Assembly (NCBI GenBank): GCA_964437445.1
Contig: CAYTGR010000009.1
Location: forward strand, 1-58,501
DNA from: an uncultured Anaerolineales bacterium
GTDB lineage: Bacteria > Chloroflexota > Anaerolineae > B4-G1 > SLSP01
Reading direction: 5' to 3'
DNA length: 58,501 nt
Under the pieces are notes generated by a model, which saw nothing but the letters and a program-made list of their open reading frames with translations, did not search any database and had not been told where the DNA came from. Position 1 is the stretch's first letter; each line of letters begins with the position of its first letter. Position numbers and translations under genes: made by a program. This document shows positions 2,236-57,864 of this stretch, piece after piece.

Positions 2236-5200
2236 ATGTTCAAACCTGTCAGCAATCAAGTAGATTTCGTGGCCCAGGAGCACGCCATGCTGGACTTCTG
2301 GCGAACGACGCGCGCGTTTGAGACGCTACGCGCGCTGCGTCGCGCAGCACCGCACTGGTCCTTCATTGACGGCCCTATCACCGCCAACAACCCCATGGGT
2401 GTCCATCACGGCTGGGGCCGTTCCTACAAGGACCTCTGGCAGCGTTTTTGGGCGATGCGCGGCTACCAGCTCCGCTACCAAAACGGCTTTGATTGCCAGG
2501 GCCTCTGGGTAGAAGTGGAAGTGGAGAAAGAAAAGGGGTTTAAGACCAAGCGGGAGATTGAAGCCCACGGGCTGGCCCGTTTTGTGCTGGATTGCAAGGC
2601 CCGCGTCCTGCGCCAGGCCGCCCGCCAGACTGAGCAATCTATCCGCCTGGGCTACTGGATGGACTGGAACGACCCCGCCACGCTCCGCTGGCTCGCCGAC
2701 AAATTGCAGGAAGACCCGCAGCAGCAGGTAACGGTTGCCGGGCCAGCCGGCCCCGTCACCGGCACCGTGGAACAGGTCGTCGGCCGGCTGGGCCTGCCGG
2801 AACTCGGCGGCTCTTATTTCACCTTTTCCACCGAGAACAACTACACCATCTGGTCTTTCCTCAAAAAGGTCTGGCAAAAAGGGTGGCTCTACAAAGGGCG
2901 CGATGTGATGCCCTGGTGCTCCCGTTGTGCCACCGGCCTCAGCCAGCACGAGATCGTCACCGAGGGCTACCAGGAGTTGACGCACGACTCGGTCGTGCTG
3001 CGCTTCCCGCTGCGGGGGCGTGAGCGCGAGGCGCTGCTCGTCTGGACAACCACGCCGTGGACGCTGACCAGCAACGTCGCCGCCGCCGTCGGACCGGCGC
3101 TGACCTACGTCCAGGTCCGGGCCGCCGACGGCTGGACCTACTACCTTTCCGAGGGGACGCTGCCCCGCGTGTTGAAGGGCAAGTATGAGATTGTGGCCCG
3201 GCTCAAGGGCGCGGACCTGGTCAGCTGGACTTACAGCGGCCCCTTTGACGACCTGTCCGCCGCGCAGCAGGCCGGCGTCCCGGCCCAGCATCGCGTCATC
3301 CCCTGGGACGCCGTCGGCGAGGAAGAAGGGACCGGCATCGTCCACATCGCTCCCGGCTGCGGTGCGGAGGACTTCCAGCTGGGGAAGGAATTTGGGCTGG
3401 CGGCGCTGGCCCCGCTGACGGAAGAAGGGCTCTTCCTGCCGGAGTTCGGCTGGCTGGCCGGGCGCGACGTCCACGAGGTTGCCCACGACATCTTCCACGC
3501 GCTGGAAGACAAGGGCCTGCTCTACCGGGTGGATGCTTACACACACCGCTACCCGGTCTGCTGGCGCTGCGCCTCACCGCTGGTCTTCCGCCTGGTGGAT
3601 GAGTGGTTTATCAGCATGGGGCCGCTCTACGACAAGCCGCGCGCCGAAGTCACGCCGGAGGAGAAAGAGCGCAGCCTGCGCTACCAGATCATGGATGTGG
3701 CCGATGAGATCCGGTGGATCCCCGAATTCGGCTACGAGCGCGAGCTGGACTGGCTGCGCAACATGTCCGACTGGATGATCTCCAAGAAACGGTACTGGGG
3801 GCTGGCCCTGCCGATCTGGGAATGTGCCTGCGGCCACCACGAGGTCATCGGCGACGAAGATGAACTCCACGCCCGCGCCATCGCCGGCTGGGAGGAGTTC
3901 GCCGGGCACACGCCCCACCGCCCCTACGTGGACGCGGTAAAAATCGCCTGTCCCCGCTGCGGCGGCGTGATGTCCCGCATCCCCGATGTCGGCAACCCCT
4001 GGCTGGATGCCGGCTCGGTCGCCTACTCCACGCTCCAATATCGCACCAACCGCGACTTCTGGGCGCAGTGGTTCCCGGCGAGCTGGATCAGCGAATCGTT
4101 CCCCGGCCAGTTCCGCAACTGGTTCTATAGCCTGATCACCATGAGCACCGTCTTTGAGCGGCGTGCACCGACCCAAATCATCCACGGCTACGCCACGCTG
4201 CTGGCCGAGGATGGCCGTCCCATGCACAAATCCTGGGGGAACGCCATCTGGTTTGACGACGCCGCCGAAAAGATGGGCGTAGATACCATGCGCTGGCTCT
4301 ATCTCAACCAGAAACTGGATGCCAACCTGCTCTTCGGCTACACCAAAGCCGATGAGACCCGCCGCCGCTTCCTCATCCCGCTGTGGAATGTCTATGCGTT
4401 CCTGGTGAACTATGCCCGCACAGATGATTGGCAGCCGCCAGCCGAATGGCGAATGGCGAATGGCGAGCAAATGGCGAATGGCGAATGGCAAATGGCAAAT
4501 GGCGAATGGCGAATGGAAGCAGAGAATTCGCCATGCGCAACACGCAATTTGTTGGATAAGTGGATTCTTGCCCGCCTTAAGGAGACCGTCGCGGCCATGA
4601 CAGCCGGTTACGAAGCCTACATCCCGCTGGATATCGCCACGCCCGCCGAGGCCTTCTTAGATGACCTGAGCAACTGGTACATCCGCCGCAGCCGCCGCCG
4701 TTTCTGGCTCAAACGCGGGCTGGATGCCGCCGCCGACGCCGACAAAGAGGCTGCTTACCGGACGCTTTACACCGTCCTGGTGACTTTCACCAAGCTGCTG
4801 GCGCCGGTCATTCCCTTCGTCACCGAGGCGATGTACCAGAATCTGGTGCGGGCCGTGGATGAGAGCGCGCCCGCCAGTGTCCACCACTGCGATTGGCCCA
4901 CCGCCGCCCCGCTGACTGCCGAGGAGCAAGAGCTGGTGGCGACGATGGCCGCCGTCCGGCAAGCGGCCGCGTTGGGCCACTCGGTGCGCGCCACGCAAAA
5001 CCTCAAGGTGCGCCAGCCGCTCGCACGCGCGTTGATCGCTGCTGATCCGCGCCGCCGGGCCGAACTGGCGCAGCTGCTGGACCTGCTGGCCGATGAGTTG
5101 AACGTCAAAGAGGTCGCCTTTGTGGAGCGCGAAAGCGAGCTGGTCACCTACCGCCTGTTGCCGGTGAACAAGACCTTAGGGCCGAAATTCGGCGCGCGCT

Positions 5201-5679
5201 TCCCGCTGGTGCGCAAGGCACTGGAAGCGGTGGACGCCACCGCCGCCGTGGCCCAACTGCACGCGGGCGAGCCGCTCACGCTAACCCTGGCCGATGGCAG
5301 TGAGGCGGTTCTCATGCCCGACGAGGTGCTCATCCAGAGCCAGCCGCGCGCCGGCTATGGCGTGGCCGGCGAAGGGGGCATCGTCGTCGCACTGGATACC
5401 ACGCTCACGCCGGAGTTGCTCGCCGAGGGACTGGCGCGCGAGGTCATCCGCCGGGTGCAGGACCTGCGCAAGGAGGCTGATTACGCCCTCACCGACCGCA
5501 TCGTCGTCCAGTACCGGGCCGCCGGGTCCCTGGCCGAAGCCATCACCGCCTTCCGCGCCACCATCGCCGGGGAAGTCCTGGCCGACGCTTTAGAGGCCGT
5601 GGACGCCCCCGTTGGCGATGCCACGTTGGAAGACACCGTGGAAGGACAACCGCTGCTCCTGGCAGTTAAACGCTCGTAA
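2236..5679 (+). CDS. ileS: Isoleucine--tRNA ligase, type 2 (eukaryote/archaeal-like IleRS)
   Basis: 1147 aa. The N-terminus MFKPV..FVAQEH..LDFWR is type-2 IleRS-like. Other motifs are HHGWGRSYKD (HIGH-like region), WTTTPWTLTSN, the editing domain, a KMSKS-like PMHKSWGN, and a C-terminal Cys-rich/anticodon-binding region. A strong SD (AAGGAGG) is present. Confidence 0.93.
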   Translation: MFKPVSNQVDFVAQEHAMLDFWRTTRAFETLRALRRAAPHWSFIDGPITANNPMGVHHGWGRSYKDLWQRFWAMRGYQLRYQNGFDCQGLWVEVEVEKEKGFKTKREIEAHGLARFVLDCKARVLRQAARQTEQSIRLGYWMDWNDPATLRWLADKLQEDPQQQVTVAGPAGPVTGTVEQVVGRLGLPELGGSYFTFSTENNYTIWSFLKKVWQKGWLYKGRDVMPWCSRCATGLSQHEIVTEGYQELTHDSVVLRFPLRGREREALLVWTTTPWTLTSNVAAAVGPALTYVQVRAADGWTYYLSEGTLPRVLKGKYEIVARLKGADLVSWTYSGPFDDLSAAQQAGVPAQHRVIPWDAVGEEEGTGIVHIAPGCGAEDFQLGKEFGLAALAPLTEEGLFLPEFGWLAGRDVHEVAHDIFHALEDKGLLYRVDAYTHRYPVCWRCASPLVFRLVDEWFISMGPLYDKPRAEVTPEEKERSLRYQIMDVADEIRWIPEFGYERELDWLRNMSDWMISKKRYWGLALPIWECACGHHEVIGDEDELHARAIAGWEEFAGHTPHRPYVDAVKIACPRCGGVMSRIPDVGNPWLDAGSVAYSTLQYRTNRDFWAQWFPASWISESFPGQFRNWFYSLITMSTVFERRAPTQIIHGYATLLAEDGRPMHKSWGNAIWFDDAAEKMGVDTMRWLYLNQKLDANLLFGYTKADETRRRFLIPLWNVYAFLVNYARTDDWQPPAEWRMANGEQMANGEWQMANGEWRMEAENSPCATRNLLDKWILARLKETVAAMTAGYEAYIPLDIATPAEAFLDDLSNWYIRRSRRRFWLKRGLDAAADADKEAAYRTLYTVLVTFTKLLAPVIPFVTEAMYQNLVRAVDESAPASVHHCDWPTAAPLTAEEQELVATMAAVRQAAALGHSVRATQNLKVRQPLARALIAADPRRRAELAQLLDLLADELNVKEVAFVERESELVTYRLLPVNKTLGPKFGARFPLVRKALEAVDATAAVAQLHAGEPLTLTLADGSEAVLMPDEVLIQSQPRAGYGVAGEGGIVVALDTTLTPELLAEGLAREVIRRVQDLRKEADYALTDRIVVQYRAAGSLAEAITAFRATIAGEVLADALEAVDAPVGDATLEDTVEGQPLLLAVKRS
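4444..4516 (+). repeat. About 10.4 copies of the heptanucleotide tandem repeat GAATGGC / AAATGGC, inside the ileS reading frame
   Basis: Sequence gaatggc x3, gagcaaatggc, gaatggc x2, aaatggc x2, gaatggc, gaatgg. It translates in-frame as ...PAEWRMANGEQMANGEWQMANGEWRME... with a 7-aa periodicity (3 units = 21 nt). It is followed by an inverted partial copy, gaattcgccat. Confidence 0.9.
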
Positions 5680-5690
5680 CGTGAATATTG

Positions 5691-5845
5691 GTAGTGAGGC
5701 GCTTGAGCGCGTTGGACGGCGCTCAAGCGCCTCGCTAAACCGGCGTTCACCAGCCGTGGGATAAAAATGTGAGCGGTGAGCAGGAAACAGAAACTTCTGC
5801 CTGCTGCTCTCTGCTCACCCCTTAACTGGTTTCTATATTTCAGAG
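5691..5845 (+). repeat. Copy of the dispersed intergenic repeat: M2 hairpin variant, then M1, then M3
   Basis: Perfect 12-bp hairpin GCGCTTGAGCGC-gttggacg-GCGCTCAAGCGC, then GGCGTTCACCAGCCGTGGGATAAAAATG (M1), then GTGAGCGGTGAGCAGG..CCTGCTGCTCTCTGCTCAC..TTAACTGGTTTCTAT (M3). M3 also occurs at 51850-51932. Confidence 0.7.
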
Positions 5846-5868
5846 AAGTTATAGACGCCCCAACACCA

Positions 5869-5902
5869 CCGCCCGGCCAGCTCTCTGCCGGGCGGTTTTT
5901 TG
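5869..5902 (+). terminator. Rho-independent terminator of ileS
   Basis: CCGCCCGGC-cagctctct-GCCGGGCGG followed by TTTTTT. Confidence 0.75.
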
Positions 5903-6034
5903 TCGGCCGCGGCGGGCTGTTGAGGTGGGCATGTCATTGCACTTTTTCATAAACACTCATATAATCAAGTTGTCAGAACATTCACGGAGTAAAGTGGCTT
6001 TCCAATCGTCATTCTGACAGAAAGGATCACCGGT

Positions 6035-7699
6035 ATGGGCTTTGTCCTGCTTGTGGAGCTGGTTCTGGCGTTGGGATTGGTCTTAATCCTGGGATTCAGA
6101 TTGGAGAAGTGGCGCGGCGCGCTGGCACTGGCCGAGTACACGATCCTGCCGTTGGTCGGGCTTCTGGTAGTCATGGTATTAGCCTGGCAGCTCTGGGACA
6201 TTTTCCCCCTCCACCAAATCCCGGCTGCCAATTGGCTCCCCTTTAACTATGTGGGGATGACCCTACTGGTCATGGAGATCTCTCTCTGGACCCTGGTCTT
6301 GAGTGCCTTGATCGGCTATTTCTTCAACGGCCGCATGGGGGCCTGGCTGCTCACCGACAGCTGGATCCTGCCCATCCCCACCTTCACGGTGCTCCTCGGC
6401 ATTGGCTTAGGCTGGCTGGGGATCTCGCAGAGCGGCCTGCTGATCGTGCTGGCGGCCCTCGGCGTCGGCTGTCTGACCACCTGGCTGACCACCACCTTTG
6501 CCAAAATCAAGCGCGTCTGGCCCTTCCTCGCCGTCTGGTTGACCTTTTATCTGTTCTGCGTAGCCGGCTATGCGGTAGCCGGGCGCATAGGCCTGCTCCT
6601 CCTCACCCTGCCGGCGCTGGCACTCTTTTTCTACCTGCTTTACACCTACGCCGGCCTCATCCTGCCCTCCGAACCGGACCAACAGCGAGATATTTTCCAG
6701 AGTTTGCTGACCTTTGGCCTGGGCACCAACTACCCTTTCTACCTGGTGGATGATTGGAAGACCCAGGCCCACAAAGACCGGGCTTTTCCGCCACCGCGCG
6801 TGGCCGGCAACCCCTTCGGGCAATTCCTGTCCGGGCCGGGGATCATCCTTAACGATTGCAACCATGTAGCCGTGGTCTATGAAGCCAACCGCTACCGGCT
6901 GCTGCCCCCTGGCCTGAACTTCACGCGCCAGTATGAACAATTCCACACCGCCGTAGACCTGCGCCCGCAGCTGCGGATCACCACCGTGGAGGCGGAGACC
7001 AAGGATGGCATCGTCACTAAAACCCTGGTTTTCATGCCCCATCGCATCCAAAACGGCGGGCATGAACCCCAGCTGGGGCAATCTTATCCCTACGACCCTG
7101 AAGCCATCCTCAAAGTCATCAGCCAACAGGCGATAGTAGAACACCGCTGGCAGCGCGACCCGCAGGGCGTCGCCAGCGAAGAGCTCCAGCCCATTCCCTG
7201 GGACGAACGGGTCGTTCCGGTGGGTACCGCCGTGCTAAAAGAGCTCATCGTCCAGTATACCTGCAACGAACTCCACACCCCCGGTGATCCGCGCGTCAAG
7301 ATTGCCGACGCTTTCCGCAGCCAGCTACGCCAGCGGCTCCCGGCCCTGGGGATTGACCTGGTGGGCGGCGGGCTCAGCAACATCAAACCTCCCGAATCGG
7401 TGGAACAACAGCGGATCGCCAACTGGCAGGCCAAATGGAAAAAGCGCATTGAGATGGAGATCGGTCTGACTGAGGCCGAGATCACTCGCCAGTTAGAGAA
7501 AGTCTGGCCCGAAGTGCAACTGGATATTATCAGAGAACTGGCCCAGATTCTGAGCCAGGCGGGCACTGTGAAAGATGACATGTTGGCATTGCAACTGGTG
7601 GAGTCTTTGGGTGCCATCCCGCCCAAAGAGGCCTCCGAGCCCAGCCAACCGGAAATCCCCTATGGCTTCCTGCGCGCCCTGATGCGCCGGGGGCGCTAA
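6035..7699 (+). CDS. Polytopic membrane protein with a C-terminal divergent SPFH/band-7-like domain and a coiled-coil tail. It is a paralog of the next gene.
   Basis: About 6-7 N-terminal TM helices. The segment GPGIILNDCNHVAVVYEANRYRLLPPGLNF..FHTAVDLRPQLRITTVEAETKDGIVTKTLVFMP aligns with the SPFH core of the downstream paralog (G-P-x-G-hh-L..N-x-V-V..L-x-PG..F...E-x-F..AVDLRPQ...T-x-DGI). A C-terminal helical or coiled region follows. Confidence 0.5.
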   Translation: MGFVLLVELVLALGLVLILGFRLEKWRGALALAEYTILPLVGLLVVMVLAWQLWDIFPLHQIPAANWLPFNYVGMTLLVMEISLWTLVLSALIGYFFNGRMGAWLLTDSWILPIPTFTVLLGIGLGWLGISQSGLLIVLAALGVGCLTTWLTTTFAKIKRVWPFLAVWLTFYLFCVAGYAVAGRIGLLLLTLPALALFFYLLYTYAGLILPSEPDQQRDIFQSLLTFGLGTNYPFYLVDDWKTQAHKDRAFPPPRVAGNPFGQFLSGPGIILNDCNHVAVVYEANRYRLLPPGLNFTRQYEQFHTAVDLRPQLRITTVEAETKDGIVTKTLVFMPHRIQNGGHEPQLGQSYPYDPEAILKVISQQAIVEHRWQRDPQGVASEELQPIPWDERVVPVGTAVLKELIVQYTCNELHTPGDPRVKIADAFRSQLRQRLPALGIDLVGGGLSNIKPPESVEQQRIANWQAKWKKRIEMEIGLTEAEITRQLEKVWPEVQLDIIRELAQILSQAGTVKDDMLALQLVESLGAIPPKEASEPSQPEIPYGFLRALMRRGR

Positions 7700-25490: not shown

Positions 25491-25546
25491 AAAAAGTGAA
25501 TAGTGAGCAGTGAGCAGTAAATCCTGCTCACTGCTTCCTGCTCACA
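25491..25546 (-). terminator. Rho-independent terminator of clpC, built from an M3-like hairpin
   Basis: GTGAGCAGTGAGCAG-taaatc-CTGCTCACTGCTTCCTGCTCAC. The minus-strand reading is followed by TTCACTTTTT. Confidence 0.6.
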
Positions 25547-28216: not shown

Positions 28217-28312
28217 GGGCATTCCCCCTGAACTGGCGTTCACCAGCAGGGAGATGAAAATTAGGTTCGTAGTGCCGCGCTTCAGCGCGGCTAAGACGGC
28301 GCTAAAGCGCAG
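28217..28312 (+). repeat. Copy of the dispersed intergenic repeat (M1 + M2), upstream of rfbD
   Basis: GGGCATTCCCCCTGAACTGGCGTTCACCAGCAGGGAGATGAAAATT + GGTTCGTAGTGCCGCGCTTCAGCGCGGCTAAGACGGCGCTAAAGCGC. Confidence 0.7.
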
Positions 28313-30555: not shown

Positions 30556-30752
30556 TAGCGCGTTGGACAGCGCTAAAGCGCCTGACTACAAGCCAAGCGC
30601 TATTTTCAAGGGAGATTTCATCCTTCCGCCTTCATCCTTTCAGAAGGCGTTCACCAGCCGTGGGATGAAAATTGGCTCGTAGTAACGCGCTTCAGCGCGT
30701 TGGACGGCGCTAAAGCGCCTGACTACAAGCAAAGCGCTATTTTCAAAGGAGG
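30556..30752 (+). repeat. Two tandem copies of the dispersed intergenic repeat (M2 partial, M1, M2), directly upstream of the patatin gene
   Basis: 30556-30620 is TAGCGCGTTGGACAGCGCTAAAGCGCCTGACTACAAGCCAAGCGCTATTTTCAAGGGAGAT. 30646-30752 is GGCGTTCACCAGCCGTGGGATGAAAATTGGCTCGTAGTAACGCGCTTCAGCGCGTTGGACGGCGCTAAAGCGCCTGACTACAAGCAAAGCGCTATTTTCAAAGGAGGTG. A further partial copy lies at 30351-30410. Confidence 0.8.
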
Positions 30753-34518: not shown

Positions 34519-34805
34519 CCCAAGTTGCTACCTTATCGTTGGCAGGGGGCATTTTCTCTTTTGACCACTGACCACAAGACCGCAGACCACTCTATTTTAA
34601 CCGCCGGGGTCTGTGGTCAGTCGTCCGTGGTCTCCTGGCAGTGCAGGTGGCAATTTGAGTTATATTACCCCACTGGCAGCACCCCACCCACGAGCTGACT
34701 GCAAACAGCCCGCCAGCTCACGCTAAGGCGCAAGGCCCGCACGGGTTTTCTTGTCACCAGAGGGTACCCGGCGTCCTGGCGTGAGACTTTTTTCAGCGAG
34801 GTCTT

Positions 34806-51795: not shown

Positions 51796-51932
51796 GGGGA
51801 ATTCCCCATGAACCGGCATTCACCAGCGGTAGGATGAAAGTAGGATGAAAGATGAGAGCAGTGAGCGGTGAGCAGGAAACAGGAACTGCTACCCGCTGCT
51901 CTCTGCCCACTCTTTAACTGGTTTCTATGTCG
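51796..51932. repeat. Copy of the dispersed intergenic repeat (M1 + M3)
   Basis: GGGAATTCCCCATGAACCGGCATTCACCAGCGGTAGGATGAAAGT... + GAGCAGTGAGCGGTGAGCAGGAAACAGGAACTGCTACCCGCTGCTCTCTGCCCACTCTTTAACTGGTTTCTAT. It parallels 28217-28260 and 5765-5840. Confidence 0.7.
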
Positions 51933-57745: not shown

Positions 57746-57864
57746 TCACAACTCCCATGCAAGCCAGTTTTGACCGCTGAGGGCGCAAAACACGGAGTTT
57801 TCGTTTTCTTAATCGCCATTTGTCATTCGCATTTCGTGGTGGGCGAGGCCATCATGCGTGACTC

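Follow-up and report, generated by a model that had tools for sequence, protein, structure and literature searches.

The ileS gene of an uncultured Anaerolineales bacterium (contig CAYTGR010000009.1, assembly GCA_964437445.1) carries an in-frame array of heptanucleotide units, (GAATGGC)n, and this array is the expanded left arm of a hairpin element with the order (GGCGAAT)n, purine-rich loop, (ATTCGCC)m, where GGCGAAT is the same unit in another register. The stretch analysed, here called the window, comprises positions 1 to 58,501 of the contig. The array is probably neutral or selfish repeat-armed hairpin DNA that is tolerated and translated in a permissive loop of isoleucyl-tRNA synthetase (IleRS). 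The gene and the parts of the element are the following:

2236–5679, + strand: ileS, intact, encoding a type-2 isoleucyl-tRNA synthetase of 1147 aa (open reading frame (ORF), Pfam, match to structure 8C8W).
4438–4554, + strand: hypervariable linker, aa 735–773, flanked by the invariant residues W732/P734 and D774/W776 (homologue alignments).
4444–4517, + strand: left arm, the (GAATGGC) array of about 10.5 units (GGCGAAT in the other register), translated as EWRMANG repeats (Tandem Repeats Finder (TRF), shuffle test, codon reading).
4518–4525, + strand: purine-rich loop AAGCAGAG, which with its neighbours reads GGAAGCAGAGA (interval between the arms, fold).
4526–4551, + strand: right arm, three decayed reverse-complement units, translated (N)SPCATRN (inverted repeat I1).

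TRF places the array at 4443–4516 with period 7, 11.0 copies, 85% matches and a score of 106, which is the highest among the 34 rows for the window. A two-unit 14-mer with at most 2 mismatches is found 8 times inside 4444–4517 and once elsewhere, at 57815, and this total of 9, against a chance expectation of 0.89, was reached in 0 of 100 shuffles; the head-to-tail units thus exceed chance, as in a simple sequence repeat (SSR) with units of 1–9 nt. The units follow in the order GAATGGC three times, GAGC, AAATGGC, GAATGGC twice, AAATGGC twice, GAATGGC and GAATGGa, and the array is interrupted, with a longest perfect run of 3 units. It translates as EWRMANGEQMANGEWQMANGEWRME in frame within ORF 2236–5679, and every break in the periodicity keeps the frame, including the 3-nt loss in GAGC. 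Repeated as (GGCGAAT)n the unit is stop-free in all six frames, and its two strands read GEWRMAN and IRHSPFA. A sequence-only reading of the window, made earlier by a model, had described an in-frame heptamer array in ileS between the catalytic core and the anticodon-binding region and had given its translation, and all of this holds (TRF score, shuffles and full-length ORF; Pfam and the 8C8W alignment; codon-by-codon reading). Its account of the composition is right in the number of about 10 units, but the A-variants are three and not two, and the GAGC that was taken for a 4-nt indel is best understood as a unit minus ATG, which is an in-frame 3-nt deletion.

The right arm, ATTCGCC ATgCGCA AcaCGCA AT, consists of three decayed copies of the unit, reverse-complemented and in the GGCGAAT register. 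Where the sequence-only reading had noted an inverted partial unit that might form a hairpin, an inverted repeat is indeed present but larger than described, with 26-nt arms at 4489–4514 and 4526–4551 that are 77% complementary and 11 nt apart. This repeat, I1, is the longest of the 77 inverted repeats in the window, and the two arms constitute a convergent inverted pair, that is, two nearby heptamer arrays on opposite strands capable of forming a stem-loop. The hairpin is lopsided here, with about 10.5 units in the left arm and about 3 degenerate units in the right. As DNA, the region 4425–4565 folds with z = -2.4 (2 of 200 shuffles are equally stable), and the RNA fold over the linker alone gives z = -1.4, a weak value that is due to the unequal arms. 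Loops of the GGAARCAG type are found also in intergenic hairpins of the window, at 5783 and 51875. A promoter and terminator scan of 4000–6100 gave nothing, so the ileS hairpin is not terminator-like, and at gathering thresholds the whole window matched no Rfam family, and no tRNA either. The insert has no interrupted frame and no stop codon, here and in all relatives read. Repetitive extragenic palindromic tags (GTAG/CGTC), terminal inverted repeats and target-site duplications were not evident by reading, no systematic or transposase search having been made.

The product of ileS contains the Pfam domains tRNA-synt_1 (PF00133), Anticodon_1 (PF08264) and DUF5915 (PF19302), and its closest solved structure is IleRS2 of Priestia megaterium (8C8W, E = 2.8e-181), the similarity spanning the protein length. 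With class I catalytic, anticodon-binding and type-2 C-terminal domains and full-length similarity to a solved IleRS2, it belongs to the type-2 enzymes. The best homologues are just 72–79% identical, and the named ones are metagenome-assembled genomes (MAGs) of Anaerolineae/Chloroflexota. Alignments with 120 homologues show that the segment from W732/P734 to D774/W776 is variable in both length and sequence. HMMER aligns the protein to 8C8W in two stretches, query 199–739 to chain 150–668 and query 770–1121 to chain 671–1007, and the gap between them indicates an insertion of about 30 residues at a 2-residue junction of 8C8W. In an AlphaFold2 model of the product (32-sequence alignment, mean predicted local distance difference test score (pLDDT) 73.5) the linker 740–768 is coil with pLDDT below 50, and it is bordered by two confidently predicted helices, 705–729 and 772–794. 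The linker is a permissive and probably disordered loop between domains, and the tolerated linker or surface loop proposed in the sequence-only reading agrees both with the insertion relative to 8C8W and with the predicted coil. That ileS is essential, as was also stated there, is reasonable for IleRS, but the 58-kb window is compatible with a second ileS copy elsewhere in the genome.

The same linker was read as DNA in several homologues, where L-numbers denote loci and P-numbers proteins. Repeat-armed linkers are listed here with their left and right arms:

L002/L003 (P0001): left (RAATGGC)x4, right (ATTCGCM)x3.
L005 (P0010): left (GARNGGC)x4, right (TTCGCAG)x3.
L006 (P0002): left (ATGGCGC)x3, right (ATTYGCA)x4.
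L007/L008 (P0007): left (xxATGGG)x3, right (CCCATCA)x3.
L212 (P0003): left (GTGAGCA)-type, right (GCTCACY)x4.
L009 and L011 (P0100 and P0102): left 8-mers, (GGTAAAYT) in L009 and (GTAGATTG) in L011, right (ACCAAYYT)n.
L028 (Promineifilaceae MAG): left (GGAGATT)n, right (AATCTCC)n.

The element of the window is present also in L002, L005 and L006, where its right end is similar (...ATTCGCAATT...) and the right arms are better preserved, and the heptamer copy number between species is 10.5 in the window against 3–4 in these relatives. The insert is thus not unique to the strain, as had been thought possible from the sequence of the window; the nearest relatives have a homologous hairpin of 3–4 units, and other lineages have other hairpins at the same codons. 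In L017, L061 and L064 the linkers form near-perfect hairpins of a C-run and a G-run. The repeat-armed hairpins begin 0–3 codons past a W-x-P motif in all listed loci, and they stop just ahead of (L)LD-x-W except in L017 and L064, where a conserved ...PGTPEGPxP... segment comes after the hairpin. The matrix of left-versus-right arm complementarity is block-diagonal, arms matching within their own family only, and the encoded linker peptides share nothing (EWRMANG, GKLVNWET, PITHHPSPH). The fold z of the hairpin linkers in relatives is -2.6 to -5.0, the lowest value being that of L028, and conserved-type linkers have z from -0.8 to +0.4. This conserved type, a non-repetitive linker of about 33 aa (PPAELLDNPSRLEEGQPNLWAPWTDAAAPTV), is present in 53 of the 61 closest sequences, and two more of the 61 have short linkers of 14 aa. 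No resemblance between the conserved linker (PPAELLDNPSRLEEGQPNLWAPWT...) and the repeat is seen by eye, no alignment score having been computed; it is a different allele class, unlike the repeat, and the repeat is therefore not shown by it to be ancestral. Most orthologues do have a non-repetitive segment of similar length, a finding that according to the sequence-only reading would make the sequence ancestral and refute it, but the refutation applies in form only. The P0003 linker was also considered as a decayed form of the P0007 (CCCATCA) hairpin, and this was ruled out, the DNA being a hairpin of the GTGAGCA family.

Unit slippage is directly evidenced in one of the relatives. A single microbial-mat project yielded the two assemblies that encode P0102 (L011) and P0147 (L214), and the DNA of the two has an identity of 99.3% (24 mismatches over 3411 nt). 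Their sole indel is 48 nt in the left arm, which equals six units of the 8-mer, or two steps of 24 nt that leave the frame intact. All linker length differences observed are multiples of 3 nt. The site was called hypermutable in the sequence-only reading, which is borne out by proxy through the six-unit difference in this near-identical strain pair, but no variant was found in the present species and the longest perfect run is 3 units.

Linkers appear also to be exchanged as a whole. P0003 (L212), with a hairpin linker, and P0146 (L213), with a conserved-type linker, are 94% identical as proteins, and their DNA has 1–7 differences per 90 nt over most of the gene and 10–17 in three other 90-nt segments. 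In the linker and about 120 nt downstream, where the linker type switches, the numbers are 25, 44 and 22 differences per 90 nt, and the left boundary of this divergent patch is sharp, at ...GGGTGG. Such a pattern fits an imported recombination tract. Residue 778 (window positions 4567–4569), among the 61 close homologues, is L (WILARL) in 8 of 8 hairpin or short linkers and I, V or M in 53 of 53 conserved-type linkers, an association that suggests a linked haplotype block or else structural coupling between the linker and the helix with which the anticodon-binding domain begins. On a neighbour-joining tree built without the linker the two linker types are intermingled, and P0010 clusters with two proteins of the conserved type, P0030 and P0047, in 41 of 60 bootstraps. 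Like the association at residue 778, the tree is consistent with recombination.

Repeat-armed hairpins occur also between the genes of the window, at four places:

5766–5822, no strand assigned: (GTGAGCR)n - loop - (CTGCTCW)n hairpin, intergenic, just downstream of ileS (inverted repeat I11).
25496–25545, no strand assigned: (GTGAGCA)n / (TGCTCAC)n hairpin, intergenic (TRF, inverted repeat I4).
34562–34632, no strand assigned: (TGACCAC)n ... (GTGGTCx)n hairpin, intergenic (TRF, sequence reading).
51854–51912, no strand assigned: GTGAGCA-armed hairpin, intergenic, homologous to the copy at 5766–5822 (sequence comparison).

The hairpins at 5766, 25496 and 34562 are located a short distance past the 3' end of a long ORF and that at 51854 between two minus-strand ORFs; the first of them, at 5766–5822, is distinct from what appears to be the real ileS terminator near 5868–5900. 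Since the GTGAGCA family is both intergenic in the window and inside ileS of P0003, intergenic and coding hairpins would come from one common pool. A 21-nt motif, TTCACCAGCCGTGGGATGAAA, is found on the + strand in intergenic positions 5746–5766, 28239–28259, 30650–30670 and 51819–51839, with 0 expected by chance, and it matched no Rfam family. Its copies at 5746 and 51819 lead into homologous repeats of 90–120 bp with a GTGAGCA-armed hairpin, ending 'cttaactggtttctat', and those at 28239 and 30650 are followed by 'ttRgSTcgtagtRMcgcgcttcagcgcg'.

Outside the window, an exact search of JGI metagenome contigs for (GAATGGC)x3 gave at least 120 loci (L092–L211), from soil, sediment and mat metagenomes. 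A 21-mer has about 4.4e12 possibilities, so at least 120 loci should be beyond chance. Among the 120 matches listed the arrays are 3 to 36 units long, and at least two reverse-complement units are present within 120 nt downstream in 29 and upstream in 2, so that the order (GGCGAAT)n, loop, (ATTCGCC)m is preferred 29 to 2 over the opposite; 89 of the 120 have fewer than two inverted units within 120 nt. The elements have only the short unit in common and differ in loops and lengths. None of the matches listed is in ileS, and the scan is therefore no population sample for the present species. Most copies look intergenic by eye, and only in a minority are the flanks on either side open for 80 aa or more; Pfam identified the host gene in three cases:

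L207, 4798–4917, - strand: MrpA-like antiporter fusion, with the heptamer in frame between MbhE and MnhB and a hairpin of -52.5 kcal/mol.
L148, 9310–9405, + strand: RACo corrinoid activator, with the heptamer in frame inside the ASKHA domain.
L150, 1957–2025, - strand: APH-family kinase, with the heptamer in frame.

Several of the metagenome hairpin loops have a T-run and then CC directly ahead of the right arm. The membrane protein of L167, a long open frame with no Pfam match, has an IRHSPFA-type array inside and two more low-complexity repeat inserts, GTRGQGDRGTGGQGDRRTRRQGDKGTGGQGDK... and GGQRSRGAEEQRSRGATEQGG; from its sequence, multiple repeat elements may have colonised one gene.

The following course of events would be the most likely to account for these observations. 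A repeat-armed hairpin of the mostly intergenic kind would first have arrived in the linker, by insertion or by local inverted duplication, and would have persisted there because the linker tolerates nearly any sequence and the unit is stop-free in six frames. Replication slippage would then alter the length of the arms, with only multiples of 3 nt surviving, and in this species the left arm would have expanded to about 10.5 units and the right one degenerated. Finally, the linker with its downstream flank of about 120 nt would pass between related lineages by homologous recombination. The element would give the enzyme no benefit and would be filtered by purifying selection for the reading frame; it would be translated as a low-complexity loop, the peptide encoded by the array being probably functionless, and hairpin-templated processes or new insertions would maintain or restore the complementarity of the arms. 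A stop-free unit helps residence in genes but is no strict requirement, an idea that was rejected when GTGAGCA, which contains TGA, was seen in frame in P0003 by means of unit variants; about half of random heptamers can be estimated to be stop-free in six frames. The observation of the sequence-only reading is confirmed, and its interpretation is partly supported. Both 'tolerated linker expansion' or 'slippage product' and 'remnant of an inserted element', which it gave as options, come close to the evidence, but the array is only one arm of a hairpin and not the whole feature.

Several points weigh against a tolerated selfish or neutral element. The hairpin of the window is weak, as seen from its 77% complementarity and from z values of -1.4 (RNA) and -2.4 (DNA), and its left arm is mostly unpartnered. 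The sole further (GGCGAAT) trace in the 58-kb window is the 2-mismatch 14-mer at 57815, and a local source for an insertion therefore lacks support, the window having no other copy. No variant in array length was obtained for this species by exact-protein look-up, 90% cluster or fragment protein search; the look-up of the ileS product returned two contigs that are identical, the cluster held a C-terminal fragment only, and the fragment search returned other species and broken genes only. The internal branches of the neighbour-joining tree are short and its support is moderate. The proposal accounts neither for how such hairpins arise nor for their fixed polarity, and their return at a single site, with complementarity of the arms maintained across changes of unit, could mean selection for structure.

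This last possibility would make the hairpin a selected nucleic-acid structure in the mRNA or DNA of ileS at the domain boundary, such as a pause for co-translational folding, an RNase or stability determinant or a protein-binding site, with the peptide being incidental. Such a structure is favoured by the many lineages that have a hairpin at precisely this linker, drawn from at least five unrelated unit families, by the arm complementarity retained within each family, by peptides without common features and by the purine-rich GGAARCAG-like loops in coding as well as intergenic copies. We nevertheless regard it as unlikely, since linkers have no excess structure (z about 0) in 53 of the 61 close and in most distant orthologues, with 14 aa in two of the close ones, so that the hairpin is not needed for ileS function. 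A maintained structure would not be expected to show the decayed stem and the greatly over-expanded arm that are found in the window, and the site resembles no terminator and matched nothing in Rfam.

It is likewise improbable that the array is a simple microsatellite which grew in place from an ancestral linker next to a right arm that is coincidental, without any hairpin element, as was the core of the sequence-only reading. The left arm by itself gives the strong statistical signal, and arrays without a partner constitute the majority of the metagenome matches listed (89 of 120). The right arm of the window is, however, homologous to the clearer (ATTCGCM)x3–4 arms in L002, L005 and L006, I1 has no longer counterpart in the window, and every other repeat-bearing linker that was read as DNA has two complementary arms. 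The polarity of 29 to 2 among the matches listed shows in addition that the pairing is non-random.

An adaptive insertion, in which a Trp/Glu-rich repeat adds a surface for binding tRNA or protein, would be favoured by the position of the insert next to the anticodon-binding domain and by the Trp that the conserved-type linker has too (LWAPWT). It is very unlikely, as the peptides of the relatives at this site are unrelated and some have no Trp, the segment is predicted to be disordered, and the periodicity lies at the DNA level, with 7 nt and reverse-complement arms. A contingency locus, where changes in unit number would frameshift ileS on and off or give a truncated catalytic fragment (phase variation), is still harder to believe. 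A heptamer does shift the frame unless units change in threes, and unit number varies between strains of a relative, but the gene encodes a housekeeping synthetase with a 1147-aa frame that is intact in every assembly seen, and both the single observed polymorphism (48 nt) and the 3-nt deletion in GAGC keep the frame. The array is moreover interrupted, which lowers the slippage rate, and lies mid-gene, not close to the 5' end. Repeats are prone to mis-assembly, but an assembly or sequencing artefact is scarcely credible, as the array of about 73 nt is estimated to be below typical short-read length, the frame is intact, homologous structures are found in several relatives from other samples, and a second contig, of 19.7 kb from JGI 3300022666, matches at 100% identity along 9.4 kb, array included, even if the two assemblies may not be independent.

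Two further observations concern the IleRS genes that were collected. Archaea-binned contigs (Thorarchaeota/Promethearchaeota, Bathyarchaeia, a Methanosarcinales MAG and a Nitrososphaerota MAG) encode IleRS that is 48–57% identical to the Chloroflexota enzyme over the full length, and the sequence likeness suggests that this IleRS type has a common origin in the two domains or that the gene was transferred. These loci are:

L039, L042, L046, L049, L056, L059, L063, L065–L067, L069, L070, L073 and L091: archaea-binned IleRS.

Secondly, P0123, P0126, P0129, P0131 and P0135, which are short 'hypothetical proteins' encoded on long contigs, represent pieces of IleRS that break off or lose the frame within or shortly past the linker, P0129 being out of frame from an upstream start; the cause may be genuine frameshifts, or errors of sequencing in this variable part.

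If the array is indeed tolerated hairpin DNA, tandem-repeat hairpins colonise, expand and are exchanged inside a housekeeping gene of free-living bacteria, beyond intergenic DNA, and such colonisation of genes is so far best documented for the Rickettsia palindromic elements (RPEs). The linker would then mark a place in type-2 IleRS that is disordered and by nature tolerant of insertions, possibly of use in engineering, and with one linker, many unit families and strain pairs it would be a compact natural system for slippage, hairpin-templated repair and recombination in coding repeats. For annotation, low-complexity peptides such as 'EWRMANG' and 'IRHSPFA' should be taken as translated repeat DNA and not as domains. 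The feature is not a new system, although the recurrence of differing hairpins in one linker is unusual, as are the direct evidence of unit slippage, that of cassette-like exchange and the polarity of the class. A bolder proposal, that repeat-armed hairpins are an undescribed class of tiny self-propagating, coding-capable elements in free-living bacteria that repeatedly seize the IleRS linker (at least five unit families) and spread as a recombining 'cassette', or alternatively that structure is selected at the domain boundary, is possible but doubtful. No papers on GAATGGC-type repeats or repeat-armed hairpins inside aminoacyl-tRNA synthetase genes were found, the literature coverage being incomplete, and a search by repeat sequence returned cloning-vector and lacZ sequences only.

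Among known systems, hairpin inserts associated with translational bypass, as in T4 gene 60 and the 'byps' of yeast mitochondria, are similar in having a hairpin in coding sequence, but they break the frame or carry stop codons, whereas all hairpin linkers seen here are in frame and stop-free. Phase-variable contingency loci (intragenic SSRs) share an intragenic tandem unit that is not a multiple of three and copy changes of the slippage type; ileS differs as a housekeeping gene with an interrupted array at mid-gene, where all changes seen preserve the frame and give no sign of on/off switching. The coding palindromes of Nematomorpha mitochondria are also inverted repeats within protein-coding sequence, with arms that encode conserved protein regions (PMC6649704), whereas the arms in ileS encode a dispensable loop.

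A closer similarity is seen to the convergent inverted pairs of heptameric SSRs in Xanthomonas (GGGAATC) and Nostoc (GGGGAYT), which have G-tract units and were studied for G-quadruplex formation (Rehm et al. 2015, PMC4692102). In the Xanthomonas type the unit number differs between related genomes, while a single array usually remains single and an inverted pair remains a pair (PMC4692102). Tandem 7-nt units in two convergent arrays capable of a stem-loop are common to these pairs, the cyanobacterial short tandemly repeated repetitive (STRR) heptamers and the element in ileS, and the intergenic hairpins of the window match the description. The re-occupation of one protein linker by various unit families is not described in PMC4692102. 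The ileS unit GGCGAAT differs in having no GGG tract, so that it lacks the G-quadruplex feature, and the ileS hairpin is in frame in a housekeeping gene, whereas the other four hairpins of the window are intergenic.

The RPEs, which Ogata et al. in 2000 reportedly presented as 'selfish DNA in protein-coding genes', are likewise hairpin-forming DNA that occurs in frame inside genes as well as in intergenic stretches, and they are translated and tolerated at permissive sites, here a surface loop into which the ileS hairpin is inserted in frame. The RPE passage of PMC1779305 describes interspersed repeats of 100–150 bp that are abundant in intergenic and coding regions, and a 63–84 bp insertion in the tRNA-synthetase gene pheT, mentioned right after it, is not identified there as an RPE. 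As far as that passage goes, RPEs are a dispersed family with a conserved consensus in an obligate intracellular genus, whereas no second GGCGAAT element is dispersed in the 58.5 kb window. The elements described here are 50–110 bp long, their consensus is limited to the tandem short unit, which varies by lineage, they change length by units, and their hosts are free-living Chloroflexota.

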